Positions 87 to 54,816 of a DNA stretch of 64,000 nt are shown here, piece by piece. The position numbers were made by a program, and so were the translations under genes. The stretch covers positions 32,001 through 96,000 of IMG/VR virus record IMGVR_UViG_3300025424_000296; one strand, given 5' to 3'. The notes beneath the pieces were generated by a model, which was not told the origin of the DNA, did not search any database, and saw nothing but the letters and a program-made list of their open reading frames with translations. The stretch comes from a virus. How positions within the stretch are numbered: position 1 is the stretch's first letter; every line of letters begins with the position of its first letter.

Positions 87-87
87 A

Positions 88-21526: not shown

Positions 21527-22981
21527 ATGATATATGACCTACTAATTGTCGGCGGCGGAATTAACGGCTGTGCTATAGCAAGAGATGCAGCAGGTCGTGG
21601 TTTACGAGTTCTGTTAGTCGAACAAAACGACCTAGCAAGTGCTACTTCTTCAGCATCAACAAAACTAATACACGGCGGCTTACGCTATCTTGAAACATAC
21701 GATTTCAGATTGGTACACGAAGCACTAGCAGAACGTGAAATATTACTGGCTAACGCACCTCACATCATTTGGCCCTTGAACTTTGTACTACCTCATGCAA
21801 AAGGACTGCGTCCAAAATGGATGATCAAACTTGGTCTTTGGTTATATGATCATCTAGCAACACGTAAAACATTACCCAAGTCTAAAATGGTAATGCTCCA
21901 GGGTAACTGGATGGGCAAACCTCTTAAGAAAGAATACGAAATAGGGTTTACCTACGCAGATTGCTGGGTAGATGATGCTAGACTAGTTGTGCTTAATGCA
22001 GTTAATGCTAGAGAATATGGAGCGGAAATATGTGTAGGTACTCGTCTATTGAATGCTACGTCTCAAAATGGATCGTGGACTGCAACACTTAGTAATAGAC
22101 GAGAAGTTCAATCACGAGTACTGATTAATGCAGCAGGACCGTGGGTGTCTGAAGTACTTGATAATATAGAAATAAAATCTCATAAACATGTGAAATTAGT
22201 CAAGGGATCGCATATTGTAGTACATAGACAGTATCCGGGTAGTCATGCTTATATACTACAGAACAATGACGGACGTATTGCATTTGCTATTCCCTATGAA
22301 GGGGCATATACATTAATTGGTACAACTGACTTTGTTCATAATGATGCACCCGGACCTGTTGCTATCAGTGATGTTGAAACTGATTATTTGATTGAGTTAG
22401 TTAATCACTTTTGGGACAAACCGATCGCTCACAGTGATATAGTCTGGAGTTATGCAGGATTGAGACCACTATATGATGACGGTTCGGTAAATGCATCAGT
22501 TGTAACTAGAGATTATGCGTTTGACCTTAATACAGATTCTGCACCGGTATTATCTATATTTGGTGGTAAGATTACAACTGCTCGTAGATTGGCAGAACAT
22601 GCACTGGACGAGTTAGGCAAGTTTCTACCCAGTTGCGGAAACAAATGGACCAAGTCAGCAGCATTACCTGGCGGCGGTATAGATTTTGATAGATTTGTTA
22701 GACAACTACGTGAAGATAAACCTCTGATAGATTTTCACTTGTTATACAGACTTGCTCGTGCCTATGGTACACGAGCGTATGACCTATTAGGTGATGCTAC
22801 AACAAATGAGGATCTTGGACGAGACTTTGGGCATGGATTGACACAAGCCGAAGTTGATTATTTAATTGCAAATGAGTGGGCAAGATCTGCTGACGATATT
22901 CTATGGAGACGCAGTAAATTAGGATTGCACATGACTCAAGACGAGCAAGCAGTATTACGTGAATTTGTCAACAAAGAATAG
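21527..22981 (+). CDS. glpD: FAD-dependent glycerol-3-phosphate dehydrogenase
   Basis: GGGING, ATSSASTKLIHGGLRYLE, VDDARLV, VKGSHIV, GGKITT, WRRSKLG. Confidence 0.95.
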   Translation: MIYDLLIVGGGINGCAIARDAAGRGLRVLLVEQNDLASATSSASTKLIHGGLRYLETYDFRLVHEALAEREILLANAPHIIWPLNFVLPHAKGLRPKWMIKLGLWLYDHLATRKTLPKSKMVMLQGNWMGKPLKKEYEIGFTYADCWVDDARLVVLNAVNAREYGAEICVGTRLLNATSQNGSWTATLSNRREVQSRVLINAAGPWVSEVLDNIEIKSHKHVKLVKGSHIVVHRQYPGSHAYILQNNDGRIAFAIPYEGAYTLIGTTDFVHNDAPGPVAISDVETDYLIELVNHFWDKPIAHSDIVWSYAGLRPLYDDGSVNASVVTRDYAFDLNTDSAPVLSIFGGKITTARRLAEHALDELGKFLPSCGNKWTKSAALPGGGIDFDRFVRQLREDKPLIDFHLLYRLARAYGTRAYDLLGDATTNEDLGRDFGHGLTQAEVDYLIANEWARSADDILWRRSKLGLHMTQDEQAVLREFVNKE

Positions 22982-23036
22982 TTGACATTAAGTTATAAGG
23001 CACTATATTAAACATATAAAAGAAAGGAAACCGACT

Positions 23037-23225
23037 ATGAATAGATTCTTTATTACAACAACTCTAATGGTCGTACTTGCTACAACTTCGATCCCTAACT
23101 ATCTAGGATCTCTGATCGATGGAAATAGTGGTGGCTATCGATACGAAGCCAATGCTTCTACAATTAATAGAAAGCTGTCTTGTTTTACTCGTAGCTGGGA
23201 TGGACACACTACAGACTGTCTCTGA
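23037..23225 (+). CDS. Short ORF, possible leader peptide before tRNA-Asn
   Basis: TTGACA promoter at 22982, AAGGA RBS; stop overlaps a CTCTG/CAGAG-TTTT hairpin. Confidence 0.45.
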   Translation: MNRFFITTTLMVVLATTSIPNYLGSLIDGNSGGYRYEANASTINRKLSCFTRSWDGHTTDCL

Positions 23226-23272
23226 GGTTAACAGAGTTTTAAAAGATGCTAGTATATATGAGTAATAAATGT

Positions 23273-23355
23273 TTCCTTGTAGCTCAGTTGGTAAAGTAGT
23301 GACTGTTAATCACTTAATCACTTAGTCGTTGGTTCGAGTCCAACCGGGGGAGACA
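23273..23355 (+). pseudogene. tRNA-Asn(GTT) pseudogene
   Basis: Cloverleaf with CTGTTAA loop, but 8-nt TTAATCAC duplication, weakened D and acceptor stems, ACA instead of CCA. Confidence 0.75.
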
Positions 23356-23412
23356 AAATTAAATAATTTTGTGATTTGACTCAGTTACGTACATCACTTA
23401 TAATCATTGATT

Positions 23413-24081
23413 ATGTTAGAACATTTAGAAGATCAAATCAGGAAATTAAAACCTTTCTTTGCCAAAGGTGCTGTTAAAGATATATTTTCCTGGCAAGAAT
23501 TAGAGTCTTTAATAAATCTTAAACCTTTATTAAACCACCAGAGATTTCATATAATATCTGGAAAAAGATATGATCCTGGATTTTTTGCATGGACAACTGA
23601 TCGTGAATTATATAGTATAGAATCATTAGAAAATGATGTACCCAAATATCTATGCTTTTTACAGGATGCGTCGCGTGTAAATTCACAAGTTAACACAGTG
23701 TGTTCAGAATTAGAGGAATTAACCAAATGTCCAACAGATGCGCATATATATTTTGATTTAAATCCGGTCGCTAAAAATGGGTTTGGAATACATTATGATA
23801 TGTCACATAATTTAATTGTGCAAATTGAAGGAAAAACTCAGTTTGAATGCTGGGACATCAAAGGCGGACCAGAGCCAATGGGTCCTAAACCAGAGTCTTT
23901 ACCAGAAGATCCTATTTTAGATGTAACAATGGAACCAGGTGATGCGATTTTTGTTCCTGTTTATCATTATCACAGAGCAAGATCGATAACTAAAAGACTA
24001 TCTATTAGTCTCCCTAGCTGTGCCACTTCTCCATTCACTCCGTGTCAGGAAAGACAATGGATTAAATTAAATATAGATTAG
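23413..24081 (+). CDS. JmjC/cupin-like Fe(II) oxygenase
   Basis: GFGIHYD...QIEGK...MEPGDAIFVP..YH (HxD...H triad). Confidence 0.8.
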   Translation: MLEHLEDQIRKLKPFFAKGAVKDIFSWQELESLINLKPLLNHQRFHIISGKRYDPGFFAWTTDRELYSIESLENDVPKYLCFLQDASRVNSQVNTVCSELEELTKCPTDAHIYFDLNPVAKNGFGIHYDMSHNLIVQIEGKTQFECWDIKGGPEPMGPKPESLPEDPILDVTMEPGDAIFVPVYHYHRARSITKRLSISLPSCATSPFTPCQERQWIKLNID

Positions 24082-24088
24082 GAAATTA

Positions 24089-24832
24089 ATGTTCACTTTT
24101 TTTCATCGCAAACCTACTATAACAATTGACTGTTTTACCTGTAATGAATTTGCATATGAACACACACCGATAGTAAAGACTTCAAGATCTTTACCAGACT
24201 GGTGGCGTAAACTGCCGAGAAGTAAACCCACAAATCCAATCTATCCACAGTTACAAAAAACCAATATGAGACACTGTTATGGCTTTATAGAACTTTTCAG
24301 ACGTGGTCTGATTATACCGACATGGTGTGAAGCACATATCAAGTGTTACAGTGATAATGTAGTGTGTGAACCATCTAAATCAAATATTACTGGGTTTGAA
24401 AGTCACGAGAGAGAGTTATTTGCAGGTGGGTTTTCTAGCTATAATCATTTCAAATGGCACCCGCCTTGGTTAATTAAAGAAAAAACAGGATTGCACTTTT
24501 TCTTTACTGAAGCAACTTGGTTAATAGAAAATCAATGTTACACTATTCTACCAGGTGTAGTTGAATATAAACTAAATCATAGTACTGCTATTAATTTCTT
24601 TTTTCCAAAGTCAGACGTACCGTATGATGTTTATCTACAAGCAGGTCAACCTCTGATTCAGATAGTTCCGTTGTTAGATGATAAGAATATTGAACATAAA
24701 AATCATCTAATAAGTTCTGAAGAATATAACAGGATGCATGGTGCGTGTGCCATGGGATTATTTGGCGGATATAAATCTCTTACTAGATTATCTAAGAAAA
24801 ATGAAGAACAATCTAAATGTCCATTTGACTAA
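24089..24832 (+). CDS. Hypothetical protein (paralogue of 27411..28145)
   Basis: MFTFFHR..., PDWW, CYGF, LPGVVE, AGQPL, C-terminal KCPF. Confidence 0.75.
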   Translation: MFTFFHRKPTITIDCFTCNEFAYEHTPIVKTSRSLPDWWRKLPRSKPTNPIYPQLQKTNMRHCYGFIELFRRGLIIPTWCEAHIKCYSDNVVCEPSKSNITGFESHERELFAGGFSSYNHFKWHPPWLIKEKTGLHFFFTEATWLIENQCYTILPGVVEYKLNHSTAINFFFPKSDVPYDVYLQAGQPLIQIVPLLDDKNIEHKNHLISSEEYNRMHGACAMGLFGGYKSLTRLSKKNEEQSKCPFD

Positions 24833-24895
24833 AATCAAATTGAATTTCATATCATTGATAGATTAAACAAATTTTATTTTTAAACGGAGAAAAAT

Positions 24896-25210
24896 ATGAA
24901 GAAGCCTTTTATTTCACTACTAGCAATACTTGTTATCTCACTATCTAGTATCACTCAGGCCAGTGCATGGCGAGGCGGCGGCTGGGGTGGTCACGGCGGA
25001 TATGGCTGGGGTCGCGGTGGCTATTATGGTGGTTATGGTAGGGGCTATGGTTACGGTGGTGGTTGGGGAGGCTACGGCGCTGCTGCTGGTATTGGATTAG
25101 GACTAGGTATACTAGGTGGTGCTATTGCTGGTAGCCAGTATTACAACCAAACTTGTATTAACCCTTATAATGGTGTTAGGTACTATTGCAACGGGTATAA
25201 CGGTTGGTGA
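24896..25210 (+). CDS. Gly/Tyr-rich secreted protein
   Basis: Signal peptide (ASA), GGWGG/GYG repeats, GLGILGGAIA. Confidence 0.7.
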   Translation: MKKPFISLLAILVISLSSITQASAWRGGGWGGHGGYGWGRGGYYGGYGRGYGYGGGWGGYGAAAGIGLGLGILGGAIAGSQYYNQTCINPYNGVRYYCNGYNGW

Positions 25211-25217
25211 GTTAAAT

Positions 25218-25259
25218 TAACTCCGCTGTGTTAGAATAAATATCAGCGTAGCGGAGTTA
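25218..25259 (+). promoter_or_regulatory. RBS-sequestering hairpin with a late promoter in its loop
   Basis: 15-bp stem TAACTCCGCTGTGTT/AGCGTAGCGGAGTTA; TAAATA in the loop; GGAG in the 3' arm. Confidence 0.75.
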
Positions 25260-25263
25260 TTAG

Positions 25264-25986
25264 ATGAAAATAAACGAATTAGAACGCAACATTATTAAAA
25301 AGAGTGACGCTAAACTTTGGCCCTATAAGCGAAGCGATTACACAAAAGAATTACCTATTTCTATCGGCGAGTATGATGTTCTTTCTAAAACACACAGTCA
25401 ACGAGCAGGTGATAATATATCAACTATTAGCGGTATAATGGTTGGTGTATTTGACGGCGAAACAGGTGTTGCTAATATGTTTATTTCTCCTAGTGATTAC
25501 CAGGGCATTAAATGTTATCATGTTGAATATACGTTTCTTAATCCAAAATACCAAGGACAGGCTATAGGCTATGAATTATACAGAGGTTTGATAGTATTAA
25601 TGGGTATACCATTGATAACTGTTGGCAGCCAAAGTCCGGGTGCAAGAAAGACTTGGCTACGATTAGCACAAGATCCTCAGATAACAGCATACGGACTTGA
25701 TATTGATAGAGACATTGTGTTCAATTTACAAGCAAATAAAAATCAAACAGAATTAAAAAGTTCAGGTAAAAAGATACAGGTTTATGACAATTATAGCACG
25801 GGTATTATTTTGGTAATTAAGAATGGCCCATATGCTCGTAAGTTAGAAAAGTTAAGAAGAGAAACACAAGATCGTGTTGGATATTATGATCCATTATTTT
25901 ATGATAAACTAAGTGTTGATAAAAATATCAAGAAGCCAACCAAGCCAGATATTTTCGGCACTAAGAAATTTGATCCAATAACTTGA
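25264..25986 (+). CDS. Late protein with GNAT-like motif
   Basis: LNPKYQGQAIGYELY acetyl-CoA-binding-like motif, QSPGARKTW; MKINEL N-terminus. Confidence 0.55.
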   Translation: MKINELERNIIKKSDAKLWPYKRSDYTKELPISIGEYDVLSKTHSQRAGDNISTISGIMVGVFDGETGVANMFISPSDYQGIKCYHVEYTFLNPKYQGQAIGYELYRGLIVLMGIPLITVGSQSPGARKTWLRLAQDPQITAYGLDIDRDIVFNLQANKNQTELKSSGKKIQVYDNYSTGIILVIKNGPYARKLEKLRRETQDRVGYYDPLFYDKLSVDKNIKKPTKPDIFGTKKFDPIT

Positions 25987-26117
25987 GAGTATTTGTGTAA
26001 TGATAGATTGTAAATTAATTATTTGGTTTTTGTGTGGTATTGTTATAATAATATTAATGACAATGTTTGATGACGTATTATTGGGGCCGCCAAACTTTCC
26101 CTAAAAGGAGAACTGCA

Positions 26118-26231
26118 ATGGATGAAAAAAATGCAATTAAGGCTATTACAATTTTAGCTGTTGGATTTGGTTGTACAATACTTCTTGGATTTGTGTTTAG
26201 TTCATTAGTAATGAAGTACGGTTTTAATTAA
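26118..26231 (+). CDS. 37-aa single-TM microprotein
   Basis: AAGGAG RBS. Confidence 0.55.
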   Translation: MDEKNAIKAITILAVGFGCTILLGFVFSSLVMKYGFN

Positions 26232-26247
26232 AAGGTAGCGCAATCAA

Positions 26248-26538
26248 ATGAAAAAATTATTCACAGTGGTATTGACAATTTTTATAATAAGTACCAACCT
26301 TGCTATAGCTCAAGTTTATTATGCACCATATCCTGTATACGGTGTTCAGGTAGTAGTACCTCCACCTGTTGTAGTAGCACCTGCTCCTGTAATTGTACAG
26401 CAACCCATAATTGTACAGCAACCCATAATCGTACAGCAACCTGTTACAGTGTATACCCCGACTTGTTGGATGCAACCGGATCCTTACACTTTTCTTGGTG
26501 AAATATTCGGATATGATTACTATCAAGTTTGCAGGTAA
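26248..26538 (+). CDS. Pro/Val-rich secreted protein
   Basis: Signal peptide; 18-bp IVQQP repeat x3. Confidence 0.6.
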   Translation: MKKLFTVVLTIFIISTNLAIAQVYYAPYPVYGVQVVVPPPVVVAPAPVIVQQPIIVQQPIIVQQPVTVYTPTCWMQPDPYTFLGEIFGYDYYQVCR

Positions 26539-26546
26539 TCTTATTA

Positions 26547-27296
26547 TTATTGGTTAGAAAGCATTCTTTTGGATGTTATGGGTATATTTGCATTTATATC
26601 CCATTTTACACCATTATATTTTAACCAATCTGTATAAATTTTATGCGGATCAAAGGTATATAAATTCAAATCTGCAAATCTATTTAAATTATTATAAATG
26701 TCTGCCCAAATATCCATACTCTGGCTATTACCACTCACCCATAAATCATGTAAAATCGCATACTTATCTTTGTAAAATCCGTTATATGTCAAAATGTCGG
26801 GGTTTAGTATGGTAAGATCAATATCTTGTTCAAATAATACATCCCACCTTGTAGCAATTACGTAATCGTATTTTTTCCCAGTGAAAACTTCTTGTTGTTT
26901 TTTAAGGGTTATTACTGCACTTCTAGAATGCATTAAGCCAAAAACACCAAGAGGTCTATGTTTAGCAAACGGCATACCAAATCTTTTAAATTGTGTGGTT
27001 AATTCTTTAAATCTATTGATGTGCAAATTAAAATTATCTAGATGTAAACCTACTGGTTTGGTACAGTTAATCATACCCTCGATGACTCCCAGATCTACAG
27101 GCGAACTTGATAAATGATACCCGGGGTGATAAAGAGAAGACATACATTGCTCTGGCTCTATTTGAAGTCCGATACTATCAGTCCATGTCATAGCAAATAT
27201 ATCAGGATTATATGGTTTGATTAACTTCTGGTAAATTCCTTCCCAACACAACTCAAAAGTTCTAAGATGGCCGTATAAACAAAGAGCAATATTCAT
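26547..27296 (-). CDS. Putative glycosyltransferase-like protein
   Basis: MNIALCLYGHLRTF...YDYVIATRWDV...HDLW.SG. Confidence 0.55.
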   Translation of the reverse strand: MNIALCLYGHLRTFELCWEGIYQKLIKPYNPDIFAMTWTDSIGLQIEPEQCMSSLYHPGYHLSSSPVDLGVIEGMINCTKPVGLHLDNFNLHINRFKELTTQFKRFGMPFAKHRPLGVFGLMHSRSAVITLKKQQEVFTGKKYDYVIATRWDVLFEQDIDLTILNPDILTYNGFYKDKYAILHDLWVSGNSQSMDIWADIYNNLNRFADLNLYTFDPHKIYTDWLKYNGVKWDINANIPITSKRMLSNQ

Positions 27297-27410
27297 AATT
27301 TATCCTCAGTTTTCTTTGTAATAAACTTGATTGACAAGGTTTTAATTTACAAATATACTTATCTATAATAAAGTGCATATTTAACATTTATAACTAAATT
27401 ATGAGGATAT

Positions 27411-28145
27411 ATGTTTACATTTTTTCACAGAACAACAAAAATAACTCTAGATTGTTTTACAGCTATGCCCGAAGTTTATAACTGTGTGCCAATAATTAAA
27501 ACATCGAGAACTATACCAGACTGGTGGAAATCTTTACCAAATCCTGGCAAAGGAAATGCATTAGTGAATCCTAACGACAATAACAATATGCGGCGTTGTT
27601 ACGGATTTGTTGAGCTGTTGAAAAAAGGTGTAACCTTATGTAATTGGGCAGATATGCATCTCCGTGTGACCGATGCTGGATATAAATTTAAAGTTACTGC
27701 CGGAGTAGAACCGGGATGCCATCATACTGATCAATATCAAGGAGCATTTTTAGACTGGTTTCACGTTAAGATGCATAGTCCTTGGTACTTCAGAGAAAAA
27801 ACAGGAGTACAATTTTTGTTTATGGGTGCTGAATGGCTGTTAGACAAATACGACTTTAAAGTTTTACCAGGTGTCGTTGAATTTCAAGTTAATGCTGCAA
27901 CTAATGTTAATATTATGGTACAAGCCAGAAGAGATCCGTATGATATATTTTTACCAGCAGGCCAGCCGTTAGTACAGTTAATACCATTAACTGAAAATAA
28001 AACAATAGAAGTAAAATGCCATGTAGTAACAGATGCAGAATACAGTAAAATTGCTCGACATCATATAACTTATAGGGGAATTAAAGAACAATTAAAATTA
28101 TATAAAAAGGCGCATACACCTGAATCAAAGTGTCCTTTTCACTGA
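27411..28145 (+). CDS. Hypothetical protein (paralogue of 24089..24832)
   Basis: Same motifs as the 24089 ORF. Confidence 0.75.
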   Translation: MFTFFHRTTKITLDCFTAMPEVYNCVPIIKTSRTIPDWWKSLPNPGKGNALVNPNDNNNMRRCYGFVELLKKGVTLCNWADMHLRVTDAGYKFKVTAGVEPGCHHTDQYQGAFLDWFHVKMHSPWYFREKTGVQFLFMGAEWLLDKYDFKVLPGVVEFQVNAATNVNIMVQARRDPYDIFLPAGQPLVQLIPLTENKTIEVKCHVVTDAEYSKIARHHITYRGIKEQLKLYKKAHTPESKCPFH

Positions 28146-28175
28146 TTTTAAATCTTTAAAACAAGGTAGAGTTAA

Positions 28176-29735
28176 ATGCAAATTAATAGTATAATAATTG
28201 TAGGCGGGGGATCATCAGGATGGATGACTGCTGCTCTAATTTCAAAATTACTACCTGAAATTAATTTATCACTAGTAGAATCTAAACATATACCTATCAT
28301 CGGCGTCGGGGAATCAACTTTATCAAGTATTAACTCATATTTGCGAAGACTTGAAATACATGATGATCAATGGATGAGTAAATGTAATGCTACTTATAAA
28401 ACATCTATTAGATTTACTAATTTTTTTGAACAGGGTAAATCATATCATGACGTATTAAAATATCTAGAGGTTCCATTTCCCATACCAGGTAATTTTGGAA
28501 TTACAATATTTAATCTATTATGCCTTAGATTTCCTGACGAATTTAGACCAGAAGATTTACCTAAATTTGCAGATGACACTTGGCAAATGATAGAAAATAA
28601 CAGGTACACCGATGATCCTGGTCCAATGAGTTGGGATACTAAAAAAGAAAAAGCATATCATTTTGATGCTTATAAATTTGGATTGGTATTAAAAGATTTA
28701 TTAGCCATTCCGAATGGAACAACACACATACAAGACGATGTATTAGAAGTACAAACTGATAAATTTGGTGTTAGCGGACTTGTGACTAAAGAACATGGAA
28801 TATTAACAGCCGACTTATACATAGACTGTACAGGATTTAAGTCGTTATTGCTAGGTGAAACATTGGATACCCCTTTTAATAGGTTTGATGATACGCTGTT
28901 AAATAATAAAGCTGTAGTTACCAACATACCATATCTTGATAAAGTTAATGAATTAACCAGTTATACTGATTGTACAACCATGCCAAATGGTTGGCTATGG
29001 ACTATCCCTACATGGGATAAACTCGGAACAGGATATGTTTATTCAGATAAATTTGTTGATAATGAAACTGCAAAAAAACAATTTATAGACACTCTGAGAT
29101 CTCGATATGGAGACAGAGTTAACGAATGTGAATTCCGTTACATTGAATTCACTCCCGGTGTGAGGGATATACCATGGAATAAAAATGTCGTCGGTATTGG
29201 ACTAAGTTGTGGATTTATAGAACCACTTAGATCAACCGGACTTCAGGTTACACATGATATGGCAATAACATTAACTGATATATTAATTAAAAACAGTAGG
29301 AAAATAGGTAGTATTAATAAAGAAATTTATAATTTTAATGTTAAAGTACTCTTGCACAATGCTAGAGATTTTGTATCTTTACATTACGCATTATCTAAAA
29401 GATGCGACACAGATTATTGGAAACACGCAGTAAATGATGTAAGTTATTTTAAGGATAATGATCTTTTTAAACAATTTGCATATTCTGGAACTAGTAATGT
29501 ATTGAATAAATTTAACAGTAATGATCAAATGTTTAGAACGTATGCTAGTTCTGGATATAATAGAATGACAGAAGCTGATTTTAAAATTTTATTAGACGAT
29601 AATCCTGATTTAGATAGAGATTTACAAACTGTTAAAAAGATATGGACAAGACGGCATCAAGAAATCGGAGCATATGTAAAAACGTTGCCTACTACAGCTG
29701 AATTTTTAAAGAAAAATATATATAATACCGATTGA
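28176..29735 (+). CDS. Tryptophan halogenase-like flavoprotein
   Basis: GGGSSG, IGVGEST, AYHFDA, YIDCTGF, GWLWTIP (WxWxIP), GFIEPL.STG. Confidence 0.88.
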   Translation: MQINSIIIVGGGSSGWMTAALISKLLPEINLSLVESKHIPIIGVGESTLSSINSYLRRLEIHDDQWMSKCNATYKTSIRFTNFFEQGKSYHDVLKYLEVPFPIPGNFGITIFNLLCLRFPDEFRPEDLPKFADDTWQMIENNRYTDDPGPMSWDTKKEKAYHFDAYKFGLVLKDLLAIPNGTTHIQDDVLEVQTDKFGVSGLVTKEHGILTADLYIDCTGFKSLLLGETLDTPFNRFDDTLLNNKAVVTNIPYLDKVNELTSYTDCTTMPNGWLWTIPTWDKLGTGYVYSDKFVDNETAKKQFIDTLRSRYGDRVNECEFRYIEFTPGVRDIPWNKNVVGIGLSCGFIEPLRSTGLQVTHDMAITLTDILIKNSRKIGSINKEIYNFNVKVLLHNARDFVSLHYALSKRCDTDYWKHAVNDVSYFKDNDLFKQFAYSGTSNVLNKFNSNDQMFRTYASSGYNRMTEADFKILLDDNPDLDRDLQTVKKIWTRRHQEIGAYVKTLPTTAEFLKKNIYNTD

Positions 29736-29770
29736 CTTTATCAACAAAGACTATATAGTATAAAAACGTT

Positions 29771-29860
29771 ATGAGAAAGAACAAAACAGTGGGCTACTGG
29801 CTAAATTTTATTTGTTTGCAACTAACCTGGATTGAACCAGGGGAGGGGCCTATCGTATAG
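29771..29860 (+). CDS. Putative attenuator leader peptide (29 aa)
   Basis: MRKNKTVGYWLNFICLQLTWIEPGEGPIV*, directly after the TTGACT promoter at 29732; stop lies within the antiterminator arm. Confidence 0.6.
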   Translation: MRKNKTVGYWLNFICLQLTWIEPGEGPIV

Positions 29861-29926
29861 TGTGATGTGATGACATTATACGACTTTTAGGCCCTTGGAA
29901 CAGACGTGTTTCAAGGGTTTTTGTTT
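29846..29926 (+). promoter_or_regulatory. Overlapping antiterminator (29846-29894) and intrinsic terminator (29890-29926)
   Basis: GGGCCTA/TAGGCCC plus TCGTATAGTGT/ACATTATACGA, versus CCCTTGGAACA/TGTTTCAAGGG followed by TTTTTGTTT; GGCCC is shared. Confidence 0.75.
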
Positions 29927-29944
29927 ATCAAAGGAGAAACTGAA

Positions 29945-30100
29945 ATGAAATGGTCCAAGTTGATTCAACGAACATACAAAGCTATAATCAAGGGCGATGT
30001 AGAAAAAGAAGCCAAACTATGGCATAGAGCTCTTAAGAAAAATATGAAAGCGCATGCCAAAGGTAAAAAGAGAAAACCAGGCGATACTGTTATACGTTAA
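29945..30100 (+). CDS. Small basic protein
   Basis: AAGGAG RBS; 51-aa Lys-rich ORF directly before tRNA-Glu. Confidence 0.6.
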   Translation: MKWSKLIQRTYKAIIKGDVEKEAKLWHRALKKNMKAHAKGKKRKPGDTVIR

Positions 30101-30110
30101 AATCCAGTAT

Positions 30111-30187
30111 GCTCCCATAGATTACGTTGGTTAGATCGTTGCCCTTTCACGGCAAAGAACCCGGATCGTCGCCGGGTGGGAGCACCA
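30111..30187 (+). tRNA. tRNA-Glu(TTC)
   Basis: GCTCCCA/TGGGAGC acceptor, TTGCC-CTTTCAC-GGCAA anticodon arm, encoded CCA. Confidence 0.9.
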
Positions 30188-30201
30188 TTTAAAAGTTATA
30201 A

Positions 30202-30278
30202 TGGCGTGTAGCTCGGTTGGTCAGAGCATTCGACTGATAATCGAAAGGTCGGTAGTTCAAATCTACCCATGCCAACCA
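30202..30278 (+). tRNA. tRNA-Ile(GAT)
   Basis: TTCGA-CTGATAA-TCGAA anticodon arm, GTTCAAATC T-loop, CCA. Confidence 0.93.
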
Positions 30279-30344
30279 TTATAAATAGATTTACTACAAT
30301 TTATACCATAAAATATCATATTTATAATACATAAAGGAACATTC

Positions 30345-31112
30345 ATGCTCATCGATTGTGTTTCATTTCTAAATGAATATGAAATGTTAGAGGGTAGATT
30401 AAAATATCTTTATGATATAGTCGACCACTTTATTATAGTAGAATCAGACTTTACATACACAGGTACACCTAAACCATTTAATTTTCAAGAAAATCGTGAT
30501 AGATACATGCCATTCATGGATAAAATCATTTATCTTCCTACACATCTTGATTATCAACCAGGAGTTAATCCCTGGCATATAGAAGACCGTCAACGAAATA
30601 GATATAATGATGCACTACAAGAATTCAGTAATGACACAGTGGTTATGATGAGCGACTGTGACGAAATACCATTGAAAGCTACGATACCTGCAGCAATTGA
30701 AGATTTAAAACAGAAAGGAACAACAACTGCATTCCAACAGCAATGCTTTTGGTTTAATTTTGATTGTTATGCAACATATCATAGCAATCCATGGCCGGGT
30801 ACAATCATGTCAACAGTTGGAATTTTAAGAAATCAAACAACTGGCCCAATGCGCGGACAACGATACCATTATAGACCAACTCAAAATGGTGGCTATCATC
30901 TTTCATACTTTTTTGACAACGAACGAATCAGTTTTAAAATACAAAGCTCGTCGCATAGAGAACAAGACTCTGAGACTGTTAGAAATTTAGACTACATTAG
31001 TGATAAAATTAAAAATCGTATTTGTTTGTTTAACAATGTACCATTTGACACCCCGCCTCCAATTGATCCTGAAATTTATGAAATTTTTCACGGATTACAA
31101 AATATGGGATAA
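30345..31112 (+). CDS. GT17-like (beta-1,4-GlcNAc transferase family) glycosyltransferase
   Basis: FLNEYEMLEGRL, VESDFTYTG.PK, QRN, MSDCDEIP, GYHLSYF. Confidence 0.82.
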   Translation: MLIDCVSFLNEYEMLEGRLKYLYDIVDHFIIVESDFTYTGTPKPFNFQENRDRYMPFMDKIIYLPTHLDYQPGVNPWHIEDRQRNRYNDALQEFSNDTVVMMSDCDEIPLKATIPAAIEDLKQKGTTTAFQQQCFWFNFDCYATYHSNPWPGTIMSTVGILRNQTTGPMRGQRYHYRPTQNGGYHLSYFFDNERISFKIQSSSHREQDSETVRNLDYISDKIKNRICLFNNVPFDTPPPIDPEIYEIFHGLQNMG

Positions 31113-31176
31113 ATCCTTAATTTATTGACTTTGTAACTTTTATTACAAAATAATAAATGATCAAGGAGGAAAGACC

Positions 31177-31368
31177 ATGAATAAGATTTTAATCACACTA
31201 ATAGTATCACTATTTGCTACATCTGTTGTGGCACTAACCGTCATACCGGCAGCAGTAAAAACTTCAAATGATGTTGCAGTTTCCAAACCAGCTGCTAAAT
31301 CCCACACAGGAACTTGGTTGCCACCAAAAGAAATACAAGACAAGGTTGCAAAAGAAAAACAAAAATAA
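31177..31368 (+). CDS. Small secreted protein
   Basis: AGGAGG RBS; signal peptide. Confidence 0.6.
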   Translation: MNKILITLIVSLFATSVVALTVIPAAVKTSNDVAVSKPAAKSHTGTWLPPKEIQDKVAKEKQK

Positions 31369-31382
31369 TATACTTTAAAGAT

Positions 31383-31458
31383 GCTGGTGTAGCTCAGTTG
31401 ATAGAGCGCGGCATTAGTAATGCCGATGTCGGGAGTTTGAACCTCTCCACCAGCACCA
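31383..31458 (+). tRNA. tRNA-Thr(AGT)
   Basis: GCTGGTG/CACCAGC acceptor, CGGCA-TTAGTAA-TGCCG anticodon arm, CCA; D-loop and T-loop slightly non-canonical. Confidence 0.8.
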
Positions 31459-31463
31459 CCTTA

Positions 31464-31590
31464 GCCCTTGTAGCCCAACTGGCAGAGGCAGGAGACTTAC
31501 GAGAAAGGGTTAAAGCCCATAACGGTGCGATTCCGGAATCTCGGAGATAAAATCTCCCAAGTATCAGTTCGAATCTGATCAAGGGCACCA
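31464..31590 (+). tRNA. tRNA-Leu(TAA) interrupted by a 50-nt insert (31500-31549) in the anticodon loop
   Basis: GCCCTTG/CAAGGGC acceptor, GGAGA-CTTA[insert]AAA-TCTCC, ATCAG-TTCGAAT-CTGAT T-arm, CCA. Confidence 0.85.
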
Positions 31591-31660
31591 GAAATTATAA
31601 GTCCGACCGCTGGTATCACAACTTCAATAAGTAGTATTAGTACAACTTGTGAGATTTTTA

Positions 31661-31840
31661 ATGAAAGACCGTGTAATTTTAACAACATTTTTGATTTTAA
31701 TTCTAGCAATGGCATTGGTAGGATGTAATTCAGTTGAGAACATTGATACTAACGGCTATTACACTCATAGCAACAGTATAACTCAACATGTTTGTCCGGT
31801 GCAGGTTAGACATAACGTCGTTAAATGGTTACCATGCTGA
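31661..31840 (+). CDS. Putative lipoprotein
   Basis: LVGC lipobox. Confidence 0.55.
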   Translation: MKDRVILTTFLILILAMALVGCNSVENIDTNGYYTHSNSITQHVCPVQVRHNVVKWLPC

Positions 31841-31877
31841 TATTGTAATCAGTTGTATGTTAACCTATACTTGATAC

Positions 31878-32234
31878 ATGATTACAACAACTATATTACT
31901 ATTGGGCACAGTCGTATGGCTTATTCTAACTATAATTGTTTTTGGTTTAACTGGATTTGATAGAATTTTGGCATGCTTGCAAATGTGGTTTGATAGAAAA
32001 TATTGGACCGGTTATAATCTAGTTGAAGCAACAAGTTATGCAGCTAAGGCTATTGTAATTGTCCCTGGATTAATATGGGGCATACAATTTTGGTGGTTTT
32101 ATATATTAACCTTAATAACAAGTTTAAGTTTAATTTGGTCTAGTAATCGAAAGTTATTACCTACTCTTGTTGTATTTAACACAGTCTGGGTGTGGGTTAG
32201 TGTAATGGCTATTGCAAAATATTTTTTCTCATAA
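31878..32234 (+). CDS. Multi-pass membrane protein
   Basis: About 4 hydrophobic segments; leaderless-type promoter. Confidence 0.7.
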   Translation: MITTTILLLGTVVWLILTIIVFGLTGFDRILACLQMWFDRKYWTGYNLVEATSYAAKAIVIVPGLIWGIQFWWFYILTLITSLSLIWSSNRKLLPTLVVFNTVWVWVSVMAIAKYFFS

Positions 32235-32305
32235 TTATATTTTTATTTTGCATTATTATACCATATTATGGTAAAATTTTCAAGTTATCTAATAAGGAAA
32301 AATAA

Positions 32306-33529
32306 ATGGAAAAGTTATTAGAACTTGGAAATCATTATGTTAGTGATTTTATTAAACCTAACGATCAATTGAGAAATGCCAACAAGTACAGTCTAGACGT
32401 ATATTTAGATGATGCAATTGGTGCAGCTCGTCTTAAAGAGACCCCGCCAGCAGAAAGTATGTGGGGGCAGTATTGGTATCGTTCTGGTATCAATGCCAGT
32501 ATGACCAAACAGTTGGGTCAGATCGTTGATGAAATATCAGGTAGAATTAAACTAAATGACGGCGACATTTGGTTAGATATTGCTTGTAATGACGGAACAC
32601 TGTTAAAGCAACTTCCTGATAATTTAATCAAGTTGGGGATTGATCCAGCTGATGACAGTTACCATGCAGAAAGTAGCAGGGTTGCCACAAAGGTTGTACA
32701 GGACTATTTCAGTGAGTCGGCATATCAACGCACAGGGTACGGTGATCGCAAGGCCAAGGTAATAACATGTATAGCTATGTTTTACGATTTAGATAATCCC
32801 CGTCCATTTATCAGAGACATACATAAAGTATTAGATGACAATGGTGTTTTTGTTGTTCAAATGAGTTATACACCCTTAATGCTTAAACAGTTGGCATTTG
32901 ATAATATTTGTCACGAGCATGTTTATTATTATAGTCTTACCAGTATCAAGAGACTATTTGAGTCTGAAGGATTTGTTGTACGTGATTGTAGTCTAAATGA
33001 TACTAATGGTGGTAGTTTCCGAGTATACCTACAGAAGAATACCAGCGACTACACCAAGTTTTCTACTGCACCACAGCGTGATGTGTTTGACTTCCAGGTC
33101 GAAAGTATTCTCAAGTTAGAAGCTACAAAATGGGATATTGGTAATCCTGATCTTTGGATTAGTTTTGGTAATCAAATAAACGCTCTTAAGACTCAAGTAT
33201 TAGAATTTCTACACCAGGCTAAACGTGAAGGCAAGACTGTATATGGATATGGTGCCAGCACCAAGGGCAATACACTACTACAATTGTTTGGAATTGATAA
33301 TACTTTAGTAACTGCTATTGCAGAACGCAGCCCATATAAGTTTGGATTACAAACCGTTGGTACTAACATTCCTATAGTAAGTGAAGAAGAAATGCGAGCT
33401 GCAAAGCCAGACTATCTCTTAGTTCTACCTTGGCACTTTATTAATGAATTTGTTGCTAGAGAACAAGAGTTTATATCAGGTGGTGGTAAATTAGTAGTAC
33501 CATGTCCGCGCTTTGAGATTTTTGGATAA
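32306..33529 (+). CDS. NDP-sugar C-methyltransferase-like protein
   Basis: YWYRSG, LDIACNDGTLL, FDNICHEH, GGSFR, YGASTKGNT, LVLPWHF. Confidence 0.85.
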   Translation: MEKLLELGNHYVSDFIKPNDQLRNANKYSLDVYLDDAIGAARLKETPPAESMWGQYWYRSGINASMTKQLGQIVDEISGRIKLNDGDIWLDIACNDGTLLKQLPDNLIKLGIDPADDSYHAESSRVATKVVQDYFSESAYQRTGYGDRKAKVITCIAMFYDLDNPRPFIRDIHKVLDDNGVFVVQMSYTPLMLKQLAFDNICHEHVYYYSLTSIKRLFESEGFVVRDCSLNDTNGGSFRVYLQKNTSDYTKFSTAPQRDVFDFQVESILKLEATKWDIGNPDLWISFGNQINALKTQVLEFLHQAKREGKTVYGYGASTKGNTLLQLFGIDNTLVTAIAERSPYKFGLQTVGTNIPIVSEEEMRAAKPDYLLVLPWHFINEFVAREQEFISGGGKLVVPCPRFEIFG

Positions 33530-33601
33530 TCAAGTGTACTAGACAACATCTTCTTTTTCAGTTATAATGAAAAATTATCAACTGAAAAAGAAGGAAATGT
33601 T

Positions 33602-34093
33602 ATGATTAAATTATCTAAATTTGTAGTAGCTGCTATTGTTGTTATTGCAATGTGTGGTCCTGACACAGCATCGGCAGATCCAATTACAGATCTTTTTGAC
33701 GGAGTTTTTCATCAAACTCGCAATCAACCTGTTGCCAATAATGGTCGTCGAGGACATCATTCAGTAACAGCAGAGCCTGCTGATAATAATTGGGTTGCTA
33801 CTACATCTTCACATAGCGGGTCGCGCATGGTTGCTTCATACTACGGACACGGTGAGCGTTTAAGTCGTCATACTGCTAGCGGTCAGCGTTTTAATCCTCA
33901 TGCCATGACAGCAGCTCATCGTACATATCCATTTGGAACACGACTACATGTTTGTCACCGCGGGTGTGTCACTGTAGTAGTCAATGACCGCGGGCCGTTT
34001 GTTCGAGGACGTCATTTAGATTTATCATATGGTGCTGCTCGTGCAATTGGTATGACCAGTACTTCAACAATTACTGTGCAACGATTAGATTGA
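33602..34093 (+). CDS. RlpA-like (DPBB) lytic transglycosylase
   Basis: ASYYG, TASGQRF, TAAHRTYPFGT, VNDRGPF, LDLSYGAA. Confidence 0.9.
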   Translation: MIKLSKFVVAAIVVIAMCGPDTASADPITDLFDGVFHQTRNQPVANNGRRGHHSVTAEPADNNWVATTSSHSGSRMVASYYGHGERLSRHTASGQRFNPHAMTAAHRTYPFGTRLHVCHRGCVTVVVNDRGPFVRGRHLDLSYGAARAIGMTSTSTITVQRLD

Positions 34094-34153
34094 TATAAAA
34101 TAACCAATATGGTGGGACTTGATTTTCCCACCATATTGCTCTATAATAGCATG

Positions 34154-34588
34154 ATGAGACACTTACATGTTATAATAGATATTAATGATCCATTAACACA
34201 GTTAATCAAAGATGATCCTGTTCGTCCTGAAATACCTGTAGAACAACGTATTAGTAACACCAAAGAAGTACATGTTCTATTAGAAGATGATACCCCATTA
34301 GCTGTTGTTTGTGTAAGTTATCAAGACTTTGTACCAAAAATAACTGAAGAATTATTTGGATCAAACAAACCAACTGTTGCTGTATTTTATACTATTTGGA
34401 GTTATGGGTCAGGTGCTGCTAAAGAACTTTTGTCAAGATCTACTGATTACATTAAGAACAGTAGAACAACTATTTCCAGATTTGTAACCCTCAGTCCAAA
34501 AACTCAAATGGCTGAAAAATTTCATATGGGCAATGGTGCTGTATTACTAGAAAATAATGCTGATACTGTGAATTATGAATATCTATAA
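34154..34588 (+). CDS. Conserved phage hypothetical protein
   Basis: DDPVRP, FYTIWSY, VTLSPKT motifs; TATAAT 6 nt before ATG. Confidence 0.7.
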   Translation: MRHLHVIIDINDPLTQLIKDDPVRPEIPVEQRISNTKEVHVLLEDDTPLAVVCVSYQDFVPKITEELFGSNKPTVAVFYTIWSYGSGAAKELLSRSTDYIKNSRTTISRFVTLSPKTQMAEKFHMGNGAVLLENNADTVNYEYL

Positions 34589-34952
34589 GTTAGTGGTCAA
34601 CATGTCTAGAATAACACTTATTTGTTTATTGTTTCTTATACTTATTGGAATATTTTCTAAAGATCAAACAGAATCTGACAAACTCAATGTTAGTTGTTAT
34701 ACCAAAAATCAGTTAGATACTATAATAGATAATAGAAAATTTCAAACTTTTACACAGTCATTCTACGATAATGGTAAAGTACTTGAAATAATGATTACGC
34801 CACTATTTAATAAAGAAATTATAACAATTGAATATGTTCGTGGTACATCTAACTATTGTATTACATCAATTACTCATGGCACTACAATAAATGAGGAATG
34901 GATAGAAATATTGTATAATACTTTACAAAAAATAAAAGGTCTCAAAGTTTAA
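34575..34952 (+). CDS. Hypothetical membrane-anchored protein
   Basis: N-terminal TM segment. Confidence 0.6.
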   Translation: MNIYKLVVNMSRITLICLLFLILIGIFSKDQTESDKLNVSCYTKNQLDTIIDNRKFQTFTQSFYDNGKVLEIMITPLFNKEIITIEYVRGTSNYCITSITHGTTINEEWIEILYNTLQKIKGLKV

Positions 34953-35015
34953 GTTTTAAACTCGGTGGATTATAAATATGGTGTGTTTATAATAAACACT
35001 GTAAGGAGAATTACC

Positions 35016-35261
35016 ATGAATTTAGAGGGATATAAAACATATATAGTTGCGGCCCTCATGGCTGCATTGCCAACTATAACAACCGCTGTTAATCATATTG
35101 ATTGGGTTACAGTACTAACTGGATTGGGTGTTCAAAAGGAGTGGATCGTACCACTTGCAAGTTTCGCAGCAGCAGTGGTTATGGCCATAATGAGAAAAAT
35201 TACTCAGGCTACGACTGTTAAGACTGCATTAGAAACAGAGCCTCCAAAAAAGCAGGGTTGA
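35016..35261 (+). CDS. Small late membrane protein, holin-like
   Basis: TATAAATA at 34971, AAGGAG RBS, GYKTYIVA, two hydrophobic segments. Confidence 0.55.
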   Translation: MNLEGYKTYIVAALMAALPTITTAVNHIDWVTVLTGLGVQKEWIVPLASFAAAVVMAIMRKITQATTVKTALETEPPKKQG

Positions 35262-35332
35262 CAAAACGCTAAAAAACACTATATTTAAACTTTAGCATTG
35301 GCATGATGATGAGTCTGTAAGACCTGTGTTAT

Positions 35333-35407
35333 GTTCCGGTGCCAGAGTAGTTATGGAGCAGACTGCAAATCTGTTTTAGGTGGGTGCAAGTCCCTCCCGG
35401 AACTCCA
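35333..35407 (+). tRNA. tRNA-Cys(GCA)
   Basis: GTTCCGG/CCGGAAC acceptor, GCAGA-CTGCAAA-TCTGT anticodon arm, U73, CCA. Confidence 0.85.
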
Positions 35408-35414
35408 AATTTAT

Positions 35415-35491
35415 AGCGGGGTAGAGCAGAAGCAGCTCGCTTGGTTCATACCCAAGAGGTCGTGGTAGAGCATTTCCCACCCCCGCTTCCA
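35415..35491 (+). tRNA. tRNA-Met(CAT), initiator-like, with aberrant T-loop
   Basis: AGCGGGG/CCCCGCT acceptor, CTTGG-TTCATAC-CCAAG, CCA; T-loop reads TAGAGCATTTC. Confidence 0.7.
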
Positions 35492-35511
35492 TTTTTAGTA
35501 GAGGTGAGTAA

Positions 35512-35625
35512 ATGAGTTTAGATACTTTCTTTGTTTTTAGTGCAATTACAACTTTAGGAGTTACAATACTTTTAACACTGTGTTGGATCGGACTTGCTGT
35601 ATATGATCATTTGAAAAATACATAA
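35512..35625 (+). CDS. 37-aa single-TM microprotein
   Basis: GAGGTG RBS. Confidence 0.5.
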   Translation: MSLDTFFVFSAITTLGVTILLTLCWIGLAVYDHLKNT

Positions 35626-35649
35626 TACACGGTGATAATGGAGAGTAAC

Positions 35650-37347
35650 ATGGAATACAAGGCCCCAGTTGATAGTGTTTTATTTCTACTACGAGATGTG
35701 TTAAAATTTGATAGTGATATTACTGAAGCTATTTTAACTGAGGCTGCTAAATTAGCCGAGGAATCAATTGCTCCTACTAATCAACAGGGCGACGAAGCGG
35801 GATGTTTCTTAGTCAATGGACCAGGATTAGAACGCCCAGAAGTGGTAACACCGGCATCATTTAAAGAACCATGGAAGCAATTTTGCAAGGGTGGTTGGCT
35901 GGGATTATCAGTACCCGAAGAGTATGGCGGACAGGGATTACCATATACCATTGCTTGTGTTATTAATGAGTTTGTATCCAGCGCCAATATGGCTTTAAGT
36001 CTTTATCCCGGTCTGACTCGCGGTGCTATTCAAGCATTGCTAGAGGTAGCAACAGAGGAACAGAAACAACAATTTATTCCCAAAATGGCCACCGGTGAGT
36101 GGACAGGTACTATGAACCTAACAGAACCGCACTGTGGAACTGATCTGGGATTGCTTAAAACCAAAGCAACAGTTAGTGAGAATGGTACATATAACATAAC
36201 TGGACAAAAGATCTTTATCAGTTGTGGCGAACACGATCTCAGCAAGAATATCATTCACCTTGTGCTGGCAAGAGTAGAAGGTGATCAACCGGGGACAAAA
36301 GGTATTAGTTTATTCATTGTTCCCAAAATGATTGATGATCAGTATAATGCAGTATCGTGTGGCTCTATTGAACATAAGATGGGTATTCACGGGTCAAGTA
36401 CCTGTGTTATGAACTATGACGGGGCCGTTGGGTATCTTGTAGGTGAACGTGGTAAAGGTTTAAATGCCATGTTTATCATGATGAATGAAGCGCGACTAGG
36501 AGTTGCAGTACAGGGATTATCACAAAGTGAATTGGCTTACCAAAATGCTGTTGCATATGCTAAAGATAGACTCCAGGGGCGTTCGCTTACTGGTGCAAAG
36601 TTTCCGGACCGAGCAGCCGATCCTATTATTGTTCACCCTGATGTGCGTCGTATGCTTATGGATATTAAGGCTGTAAATGAAGCTGGACGTCTTTTGATAT
36701 TAGAAGCAGCTTTGCTATGTGAAGATAAGTCAGATGCTGCACAAGACAGATTAGGATTGATGACTCCGATTCTTAAAGGTCTTCTTACAGATTTGGGATT
36801 CGAAAATGCTGTAAAGGCACAGCAGGTATTCGGCGGACATGGTTATATTCGAGAATGGGGTATGGAACAAATTGTTCGTGACGCTCGTATTGCTCAAATA
36901 TACGAGGGTGCCAATGGTGTTCAAGCTATGGATTTAATTGGGCGTAAACTTCCAAAGAATATGGGCCGTGCAGTTAAGAACTTTTTTGATGAAAATGAAA
37001 AGATTCTCATCGACTTCATGCTTGATCCGCTTACAACAGTATCTCCTATAGCGACAGATGTATATGGAGCATTAAACGACCTAAAGGCAGCAACTAAATG
37101 GTTGATGCAAAATGCACTTAAAAATCCCAATAATGCTGGATCTGCTGCTTATGATTACATGTACTTGTTTGGTATTGTGTTGCTGGGACTTGCGCATGTT
37201 AAGATAGTTGCTGCCACTGATGATGCGGATAGACACATAACAGCCAAATATTTCATTGAACGTATTTTACCAGAAACTAAATTACGTCTCTCCCGTATCC
37301 AAGCAGGATCAGGTACAATGATGTCATTGAGTGACACTGGTTTTTGA
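35650..37347 (+). CDS. Acyl-CoA dehydrogenase
   Basis: GTMNLTEPHCGTDLG, GQKIFIS, EHKMGIHGS, QVFGGHGYI.E, IYEGANGVQA. Confidence 0.95.
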   Translation: MEYKAPVDSVLFLLRDVLKFDSDITEAILTEAAKLAEESIAPTNQQGDEAGCFLVNGPGLERPEVVTPASFKEPWKQFCKGGWLGLSVPEEYGGQGLPYTIACVINEFVSSANMALSLYPGLTRGAIQALLEVATEEQKQQFIPKMATGEWTGTMNLTEPHCGTDLGLLKTKATVSENGTYNITGQKIFISCGEHDLSKNIIHLVLARVEGDQPGTKGISLFIVPKMIDDQYNAVSCGSIEHKMGIHGSSTCVMNYDGAVGYLVGERGKGLNAMFIMMNEARLGVAVQGLSQSELAYQNAVAYAKDRLQGRSLTGAKFPDRAADPIIVHPDVRRMLMDIKAVNEAGRLLILEAALLCEDKSDAAQDRLGLMTPILKGLLTDLGFENAVKAQQVFGGHGYIREWGMEQIVRDARIAQIYEGANGVQAMDLIGRKLPKNMGRAVKNFFDENEKILIDFMLDPLTTVSPIATDVYGALNDLKAATKWLMQNALKNPNNAGSAAYDYMYLFGIVLLGLAHVKIVAATDDADRHITAKYFIERILPETKLRLSRIQAGSGTMMSLSDTGF

Positions 37348-54505: not shown

Positions 54506-54528
54506 GCACTGAATTTCCTCAGTGCCTA
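54503..54528. terminator. Hairpin between convergent genes
   Basis: TAGGCACTGA...TCAGTGCCTA. Confidence 0.55.
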
Positions 54529-54539
54529 GTGTTATTTAA

Positions 54540-54773: not shown

Positions 54774-54816
54774 GCTTTGCTTGCAGTGTTAAGTATAAGT
54801 CTGTTTAAATCATTGT

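Follow-up and report, generated by a model that had tools for sequence, protein, structure and literature searches.

The window analysed here is a 64,000-nt stretch of DNA, bases 32001-96000 of the 113,210-bp IMG/VR virus record IMGVR_UViG_3300025424_000296, and it contains a tRNA-Leu(UAA) gene that is split in its anticodon loop by a 50-nt intervening sequence (Table 1). ARAGORN with introns allowed (-i) calls the gene as tRNA-Leu(taa) at 31464-31590 with a 50-nt intron and skips it in default mode, and Rfam RF00005 matches it end to end (31464-31587, 44 bits, gathering score 29), with 53 nt inserted at the anticodon loop; both calls bear out the initial annotation of a tRNA carrying a 50-nt insert. 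Only Watson-Crick pairs occur in the acceptor (7 bp), anticodon (5 bp), and T (5 bp) stems, the D stem has 3 bp, the same as in uninterrupted relatives, and ACCA stands at the 3' end of the gene. The anticodon-loop junction is degenerate, as had been pointed out: cuts at 33/34, 34/35, or 35/36 yield the same product. The placement of the insert at 31500-31549 in the initial annotation is therefore an equivalent register, but the pattern of the insert family sets it between U34 and A35, at 31499-31548.

The split gene and the tRNA-Thr(AGU) gene upstream of it are probably on one transcript, and a weak promoter-like site is present at 31346-31374. The A34 anticodon (AGU) of this tRNA-Thr is unusual for bacteria and phages. 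The window holds seven tRNA matches, each above the Rfam gathering score, and no sub-gathering tRNA match was found at E <= 0.5 in 22500-36500; the idea that decaying neighbour tRNAs mark the intact split gene as selected thus falls away. The seventh tRNA (35415-35488, Rfam 42 bits), directly after tRNA-Cys, is not reported by ARAGORN.

Table 1. Features of the split tRNA-Leu(UAA) locus (window coordinates) and, in the last row, the genes with ACCA-ended inserts used for comparison
Feature	Position	Strand	Evidence or remarks
tRNA-Thr(AGU)	31383-31458	+	ARAGORN; Rfam 63.4 bits; 5 nt upstream of the split gene
5' exon, tRNA positions 1-34	31464-31498	+	ARAGORN/Rfam; alignment A1 with uninterrupted phage tRNA-Leu
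5' exon: acceptor; D arm; anticodon stem, 5' strand	31464-31470; 31473-31489; 31491-31495	+	
C32 U33 U34	31496-31498	+	5' exon end
50-nt intervening sequence	31499-31548	+	50-nt gap against uninterrupted homologues; family table
N+1 (A31499, mismatch with G31544) and P1 5' strand CGAGA	31499-31504	+	4 of 5 P1 pairs change on both sides (N+1/N72 column counted apart)
P2 hairpin GGGU-UAAA-GCCC, variable module	31507-31518	+	3 of 4 pairs change on both sides
P3 hairpin CGG-UGCGAUU-CCG, T-loop-like 7-nt loop, conserved core	31523-31535	+	U-K-C-R-A-H-Y (H = A, C, or U) in 11/11 rows
J31 linker GAA	31536-31538	+	GAA in 8 of 11 rows, AAA in 2, AUA in 1
P1 3' strand UCUCG and N72 (G31544)	31539-31544	+	fold, covariation, family table
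4-nt 3' tail AGAU	31545-31548	+	4-nt tail in 11/11 rows
3' exon, tRNA positions 35-76	31549-31590	+	ARAGORN/Rfam; alignment A1
3' exon: A35 A36 A37 A38; anticodon stem, 3' strand; 5-nt variable loop	; 31553-31557; 	+	
3' exon, continued: T arm; acceptor; A73; CCA	31563-31579; 31580-31586;; 	+	
ACCA-ended insert genes	L095:174-277; L096:1806-1908; L097:3111-3213; L105:2231-2334		

The source of the split gene is an uncultured freshwater giant phage. The record (GC 37.5%) is rated 28% complete by CheckV, which suggests that the whole genome is near 400 kb, and its genes include RIIA, collagen-type tail fibres, a ClpB-like ATPase, DUF444 and SpoVR (PrkA neighbours), and a tryptophan halogenase. 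The closest GenBank relative found through RIIA is a 595-kb uncultured phage (28% identity), and the GT17 protein encoded near the tRNA genes is also on record on a 305.6-kb contig. As queries in IMG/VR, this GT17 protein and RIIA gave no related loci, and there was no related tRNA among 80 tryptophan-halogenase loci of ~40% identity. Near-identical DNA occurs in seven freshwater metagenome runs of 2017, and the sequencing runs with this DNA number 13, all of freshwater DNA; in the four of them that were compared the insert is unchanged and no insert-less form occurs. Host-like metabolic genes lie around the tRNA cluster (1046-3809, 28176-29735, and 35632-37347) and encode DUF444 and SpoVR (PrkA operon partners), tryptophan halogenase, GT17 glycosyltransferase, a C-methyltransferase, and an acyl-CoA dehydrogenase. 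A 4,416-codon open reading frame starts at window 60096 (genome 92096-105346), and a second one, of 1,627 codons, comes after it.

The identity of the tRNA can be read from its exons. When joined (77 nt), they can be aligned along positions 1-77 to uninterrupted tRNA-Leu genes annotated in phages (74-77 nt), with identities of 79% for Bacillus phage P59, 83% over 1-72 for Synechococcus phage S-CREM1, and 91% over 8-63 for Pseudomonas phage PHB09; Felixounavirus wV8 and cyanophage P-RSM6 also match. In this alignment (A1), the D arm is invariant, and what sets the split gene apart is a single clean gap of 50 nt, located in a loop that reads CUUAAAA or CUUAGAA. The gene has every mark of short phage tRNA-Leu, namely this D arm (UAGCCCAA..GG.AGAG.CA), the 5-nt variable loop, and A73, and ARAGORN calls all five spliced short-Leu members tRNA-Leu(taa). 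Judged by sequence, the split gene is a tRNA-Leu(UAA) of a widespread short-variable-arm phage family, as the initial annotation had it, rather than a tRNA-Val(UAC), because the predicted spliced product aligns over its full length with uninterrupted phage tRNA-Leu(UAA/UAG) genes. The valine reading would place the intron at 36/37 or at the canonical 37/38, take five or six loop bases from the 5' side, and leave a CUUACAA or CUUACGA loop. It draws on the 5-nt variable loop, which is odd for Leu and unlike cellular tRNA-Leu, and on the match of CUUACAA to the loop of E. coli tRNA-Val(UAC), but it has a negligible probability: the body and invariant D arm are those of the short phage tRNA-Leu family with its CUUAAAA or CUUAGAA uninterrupted loops, the homologous inserts of L094, L104, and L111 are compatible only with the UAA register. 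The Val(UAC) register was accordingly rejected on homology. The short-arm phage family as a whole (A1; L085-L090; many of L091-L126) combines the 5-nt variable loop with a Leu-type 3-bp D stem, has anticodons UAA, UAG, CAA, and GAG, and extends from Felixounavirus through to cyanophages and Bacillus phages. In the long open reading frames of the fragment, UUA accounts for 41% of leucine codons, more than any other, and neither ARAGORN nor R1, the covariance model described below, found another Leu(UAA) gene in the 113 kb.

The MFE fold of the insert is a three-way junction of CGAGA/UCUCG, GGGU-UAAA-GCCC, and the T-loop-like CGG-UGCGAUU-CCG, just as it was drawn in the initial annotation. The folding energy of the insert alone is no better than that of shuffled sequences (z = -0.86). 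We consider the fold to be beyond chance because homologous inserts fold alike, the same three helices being found by independent MFE prediction in four of five, and because the helices covary over 12 aligned rows. The acceptor-like and T-like stack has ~11 layers with a 1-nt bulge, not 12. By inspection of the predicted fold, the 5' site is immediately next to P1, and the 3' site falls within a single-stranded stretch of 8 nt. In the computed MFE of the interrupted tRNA, the tail pairs with the 3' strand of the anticodon stem (-39.0 vs -34.5 kcal/mol for the native fold), a predicted misfold that disrupts the anticodon stem and is favoured by 4.5 kcal/mol in the nearest-neighbour model. The alternative pairing of a second GGAGA with UCUCC that had been noted is present in the MFE, but it occurs in no relative, so that its reading as a designed feature is not supported; a 'cage' role for it was rejected on the same ground. 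Two further candidates were also set aside. The 12-nt palindrome GATTCCGGAATC (31529-31540) is incidental, being single-copy in the genome with non-palindromic counterparts in the relatives, which have AATCCGGAATC. As for a target-site duplication of GGAGA or TA, removal of the corresponding unit gives no valid loop, or inverted ends are missing.

Homologous inserts were sought in IMG/VR and JGI metagenomes with an exon-anchored pattern allowing 50-80 extra bases and with a core-anchored scan, and the covariance model R1 was built from four short members, the window included. Pattern scans and model together gave 10 distinct homologues of the insert, 50-80 nt long, on other phage contigs, most of them from giant phages; the genes that they interrupt are tRNA-Leu(UAA) of the short and class II kinds, tRNA-Leu(CAA), tRNA-Ala(UGC), and tRNA-Thr(UGU). 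The exon-anchored scan found short tRNA-Leu(UAA) genes with inserts in L094 (54 nt), L104/L109 (50 nt), and L111 (51 nt). The record behind L094, G001 (134.5 kb), has 33 tRNAs by ARAGORN with introns allowed, and the same type of insert interrupts its tRNA-Ala(UGC) (62 nt) and tRNA-Thr(UGU) (80 nt). The core scan added class II tRNA-Leu(UAA) members in L134 (71 nt), L150 (63 nt), and L137, L140, L154, and L157 (62 nt, identical); L134 is located in G004, a 455-kb record rated 100% complete by CheckV and the only complete genome with a member. R1 recovered all members from the pattern scans and added a tRNA-Leu(CAA) case (L109:869-936), with scores of 23.8-62.8 bits for non-seed members; the 83.7 bits of the window are high by construction, as it is part of the seed. 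No second copy of the insert was found by R1 in the 113-kb record. Exact-word scans of IMG/VR with the 3' half of the insert and the 3' half of the tRNA returned nothing, and megablast and blastn against GenBank phages found no relative of the locus or insert. Against cellular genomes, one per species, the core pattern gave 30 hits, which is about the chance number; only one of them, L197, is a real member. This contig (JALOAT010000054.1, 24,983 bp) carries the interrupted tRNA-Leu of L134, with R1 scores equal to those of the G004 locus; its assignment to a Gammaproteobacteria MAG either hints at the host of that phage or reflects wrong binning. The present fragment has only 2 weak protein matches in common with G001, and with G004 it shares 25 of 152 ORFs (21-54% identity).

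The searches also brought up inserts of other kinds. A CAU-anticodon tRNA of G001 (33663-33807, equal to L094 ~55-196, minus strand) is interrupted by 66-67 nt that include a canonical GGTTCGATCC T arm and, as a stem, GCCUUU/AAAGGC; this is another tRNA-like insert type, and G001 has over-long tRNAs for Ile-UAU (92 nt), Pro (90 nt), and Met (90 nt). The tRNA-Leu-like genes of L103, L106, L112, L118, L123, L119, L120, L098, L108, and L115 have 30-70 extra bases in or near the anticodon arm and fit neither insert family.

Every member of the family has the same order of parts, which is N+1, P1, AA, P2, P3, a 3-nt linker, P1', N72, and a 4-nt tail. P1 has 5 bp (4 in L111), and P2 consists of one or two hairpins of 12 to ~50 nt. 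The P3 core reads YGG-UKCRAHY-CCR, and the linker departs from GAA to AAA in L104/L109a and to AUA in L111. Of the aligned rows, four pair N+1 with N72 as C-G, and six have a mismatch at this position. In alignment A7, 96.2% of the cells are standard pairs and 13 of 18 pairs change on both sides, figures that its fit to the model favours somewhat, although the independent MFE folds agree with it in four of five inserts. Its covariation is 0.553 vs 0.135 in shuffles, with 0 of 500 reaching 0.553, and at most 0.108 when partners are slid. The P3 core is kept across the family while P1 covaries and P2 is freely replaced; the P2 of the G001 tRNA-Thr insert (L129:15632-15711) contains three tandem GTGATCA repeats, another sign that P2 changes freely. 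The existence of homologues with a covarying fold in several phages means that the insert is not a one-off lesion, which is how the initial annotation would have read an insert without relatives showing compensatory changes.

The ends of the insert are fixed as well. Between rows, the insertion point lies anywhere from 32/33 to 35/36, 1 to 4 of the tail and loop bases are on the 5' side, and insert lengths are 50-80 nt. The unpaired bases flanking P1, that is, 7 from the loop and 4 from the tail, nevertheless sum to 11 in 11/11 rows including the window, so that every unit begins at N+1 and ends four bases after N72, at the equivalent of tRNA base 76. In every row, removal of the insert restores a 7-nt anticodon loop with the right anticodon. 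The base preceding the insert is U in 8 of 11 rows, the tails of relatives read CCCA, CCGA, CCUA, CCAA, and others, and the L094 insert ends in C followed by CCA. The element is a conserved folded unit with fixed ends that occurs in four kinds of tRNA in several phages.

Our favoured reading, which we hold with moderate confidence, is that the tRNA-Leu(UAA) gene is interrupted by a mobile tRNA-like mini-intron that is removed by proteins or RNPs and not by itself; the removal we infer from the architecture of the family. In its build the insert resembles the top of a tRNA. Its acceptor-like closing stem has 5 bp and, before them, an often mismatched first pair; the other parts are a variable hairpin, a hairpin resembling a T arm with a T-loop-type loop, and a 4-nt tail where NCCA would sit. 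RNase P would cut at the 5' end of the acceptor-like stem, leaving U34 with a 3'-OH, an endonuclease acting at tRNA-like 3' ends would cut after the 4-nt tail, leaving A35 with a 5'-phosphate, and an ATP-dependent RNA ligase of the Rnl1 or Rnl2 type would seal the nick in the anticodon loop, the product being a tRNA for UUA. Bacterial RNase P favours U before its cut site. These three activities would fit because the ends of the unit correspond to tRNA positions +1 and 76, because the L094 insert ends in C+CCA, and because U precedes the insert in most rows. The mimicry of tRNA ends is imperfect in the window, as its tail is AGAU and not CCA and its first pair is an A.G mismatch, and we know of no bacterial enzyme that would cut after a non-CCA 4-nt tail.

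The enzymes themselves are unevenly distributed over the records. G004 encodes an Rnl1 match (100 bits, at 54477-55052) and three Rnl2-type matches, which lend weak support because RNA ligases are common in giant phages (PMC7824862). Cleavage plus ligation had been envisaged initially, but the 113-kb fragment contains no ligase or endoribonuclease gene that was found, and Rnl1, Rnl2, and RtcB have no match in it or in G001, each of which covers about a quarter of its genome. No splicing endonuclease (tRNA_int_endo, PF01974) was over cut-off in G000, G001, G004 (complete), or G005.

The chief competing explanation is that the insert is a selfish element with fixed ends that is never removed, the interrupted tRNA copy being inactivated and UUA being read by a host tRNA or another phage tRNA. 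We regard this as unlikely, though far from negligible. The interrupted copy could be dispensable because G001 and G004 also carry uninterrupted Leu(UAA) genes beside the interrupted one; the 113-kb fragment yielded no ligase, the anticodon stem is disrupted in the computed MFE, and the constant sum of 11 requires only an element with fixed ends, since insertion of such a unit, without duplication or splicing, gives the same arithmetic. On the other hand, ten distinct members in four kinds of tRNA all keep intact cloverleaf exons and an exact 7-nt loop after removal, the conserved core and covarying stems argue that the element is selected as a folded RNA, its ends match positions of tRNA-like processing that a DNA-level parasite would not need, and the insert encodes no protein able to move it.

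It is quite improbable that the locus instead makes an RNA that is tRNA-shaped but does not decode, with the insert as a permanent functional arm, either for Ro60 docking as in Y RNA or YrlA or as a decoy for anticodon nucleases. G004 does encode a TROVE/Ro60 protein (174838-175542), but its gene and the interrupted tRNA are ~23 kb apart, no Y RNA family matched in G004 170000-180000, there is no TROVE gene in the fragment, G001, or G005, and neither YrlA (RF02553) nor any Rfam family other than tRNA matches the region at E <= 10. Moreover, the split loop bases are kept according to the anticodon (CUU/AAAA here, CUU/GCAC in Ala, UU/UGUAA in Thr), which would be needless in a non-decoding RNA.

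The mini-intron proposed here differs from the group I intron of cyanobacterial and plastid tRNA-Leu(UAA), even though the tRNA species is the same. That intron also sits between U34 and A35. It exceeds 200 nt, whereas the insert has 50 nt, lacks a P1-P9 core and any RF00028 match at E <= 10, and has U or A as its last base whichever loop-restoring register is chosen, where a group I intron has a 3' terminal G. The insert cannot self-splice by group I chemistry, and the view that it is neither group I nor group II stands, as it is too short and is without their features. Self-processing by a small ribozyme formed from the junction bases, with ends left for an RtcB-type ligase, is very improbable as well. 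The compact three-way junction with its conserved unpaired A-rich joiners (AA, AUAA, GAA) has a superficial likeness to nucleolytic ribozymes, but Rfam gave no hammerhead, twister, pistol, hatchet, hairpin, or group I match at E <= 10, a CUGANGA core is absent, two separate cuts would be needed, and RtcB has no match in G000, G001, G004, G005, G006, or G007. Introns of archaeal and eukaryal tRNAs follow the same logic as the one proposed here, protein-dependent cutting of a short anticodon-loop insert followed by ligation, but they are cut at a bulge-helix-bulge at 37/38; none can be drawn here and the site is 34/35 (32/33 to 35/36 in relatives), so that archaeal-type splicing fails on motif, position, and enzyme. 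In tRNA punctuation, where RNase P and RNase Z act at tRNA mimics in mitochondrial transcripts, a tRNA-like fold serves purely as a cutting signal, as we propose for the insert; the difference is that here the mimic would lie inside a tRNA whose flanks must be rejoined.

The closest published system is that of the 'enigmatic' introns in tRNA genes of Lak megaphages, which have no Rfam hit and one of which possibly encodes a tRNA (Devoto et al. 2019, PMC6784885). They too are short non-group-I inserts in the anticodon region of giant-phage tRNA genes (PMC6784885, Fig. 4, Table S6), and in the Tyr and Phe introns a T-arm (GGTTCGAATCC or GGTTCGATTCC) is flanked by an acceptor-like stem. They differ in being 79-93 nt long and in occurring in Tyr, Phe, Gly, and Thr genes of gut Prevotella phages, and they are unrelated in sequence, with no GGTGCRAA core among the Table S6 entries listed; that paper gives no fold family, covariation, end rule, or mechanism for them. 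Their existence makes the statement that bacterial tRNA introns are all group I or II incomplete (PMC6784885). Full-text literature searches yielded no paper with a mechanism for, or description of, the insert family of the window.

Nearer in position are the ACCA-ended inserts of L095, L096/L097, and L105, which interrupt short tRNA-Leu(UAA) at the same U34/A35 site with 49-50 nt, a T-like hairpin, and a 4-nt tail. They have a 7-bp acceptor stem and a literal ACCA, in contrast to the 5 bp and often mismatched first pair of the window's family, which has a distinct core of its own, YGG-UKCRAHY-CCR, with GAA after it in most rows, and tails that vary freely in sequence; R1 scores them at 27-28 bits, and their sequence is unrelated. 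An Rnl2-type ligase is encoded in both IMG/VR records behind L095 and L096. An acceptor-like stem stacked on a T-arm-like hairpin in the anticodon loop is common to the window, the ACCA-ended, and the Lak inserts, and a discriminator plus CCA at the insert end is not found in the window.

We tentatively suggest, as a possibility that may well prove wrong, that these inserts represent a third kind of tRNA intron besides the self-splicing and bulge-helix-bulge kinds, in which a mini-tRNA serves as the intron, its ends made by the enzymes of tRNA maturation and sealed by Rnl ligases. It might spread by the reverse chemistry, a processed mini-tRNA being ligated into an anticodon loop cut by a host nuclease and then copied back into DNA. 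Such reverse ligation would explain why the family, its ends always at +1 and 76, has spread among genes for Leu, Ala, and Thr tRNAs.

Textbooks hold that bacteria and their viruses have only self-splicing tRNA introns. The insert points to a barely described type of intron that would need proteins for its removal, and a family of inserts without a ribozyme core in unrelated giant phages would mean either a protein-dependent bacterial splicing route or a new RNA-shaped mobile element. What is new here is the insert family with its model R1 and its fixed ends, short tRNA-like phage introns being already known in Lak megaphages (PMC6784885). Annotation pipelines run in bacterial mode miss such tRNAs, as the default ARAGORN run did with the split tRNA-Leu, so that the tRNA repertoires of phages are undercounted. 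To our knowledge, phage RNA ligases have so far been seen only as repair enzymes against anticodon nucleases; if the proposed removal is true, they would gain a housekeeping job.
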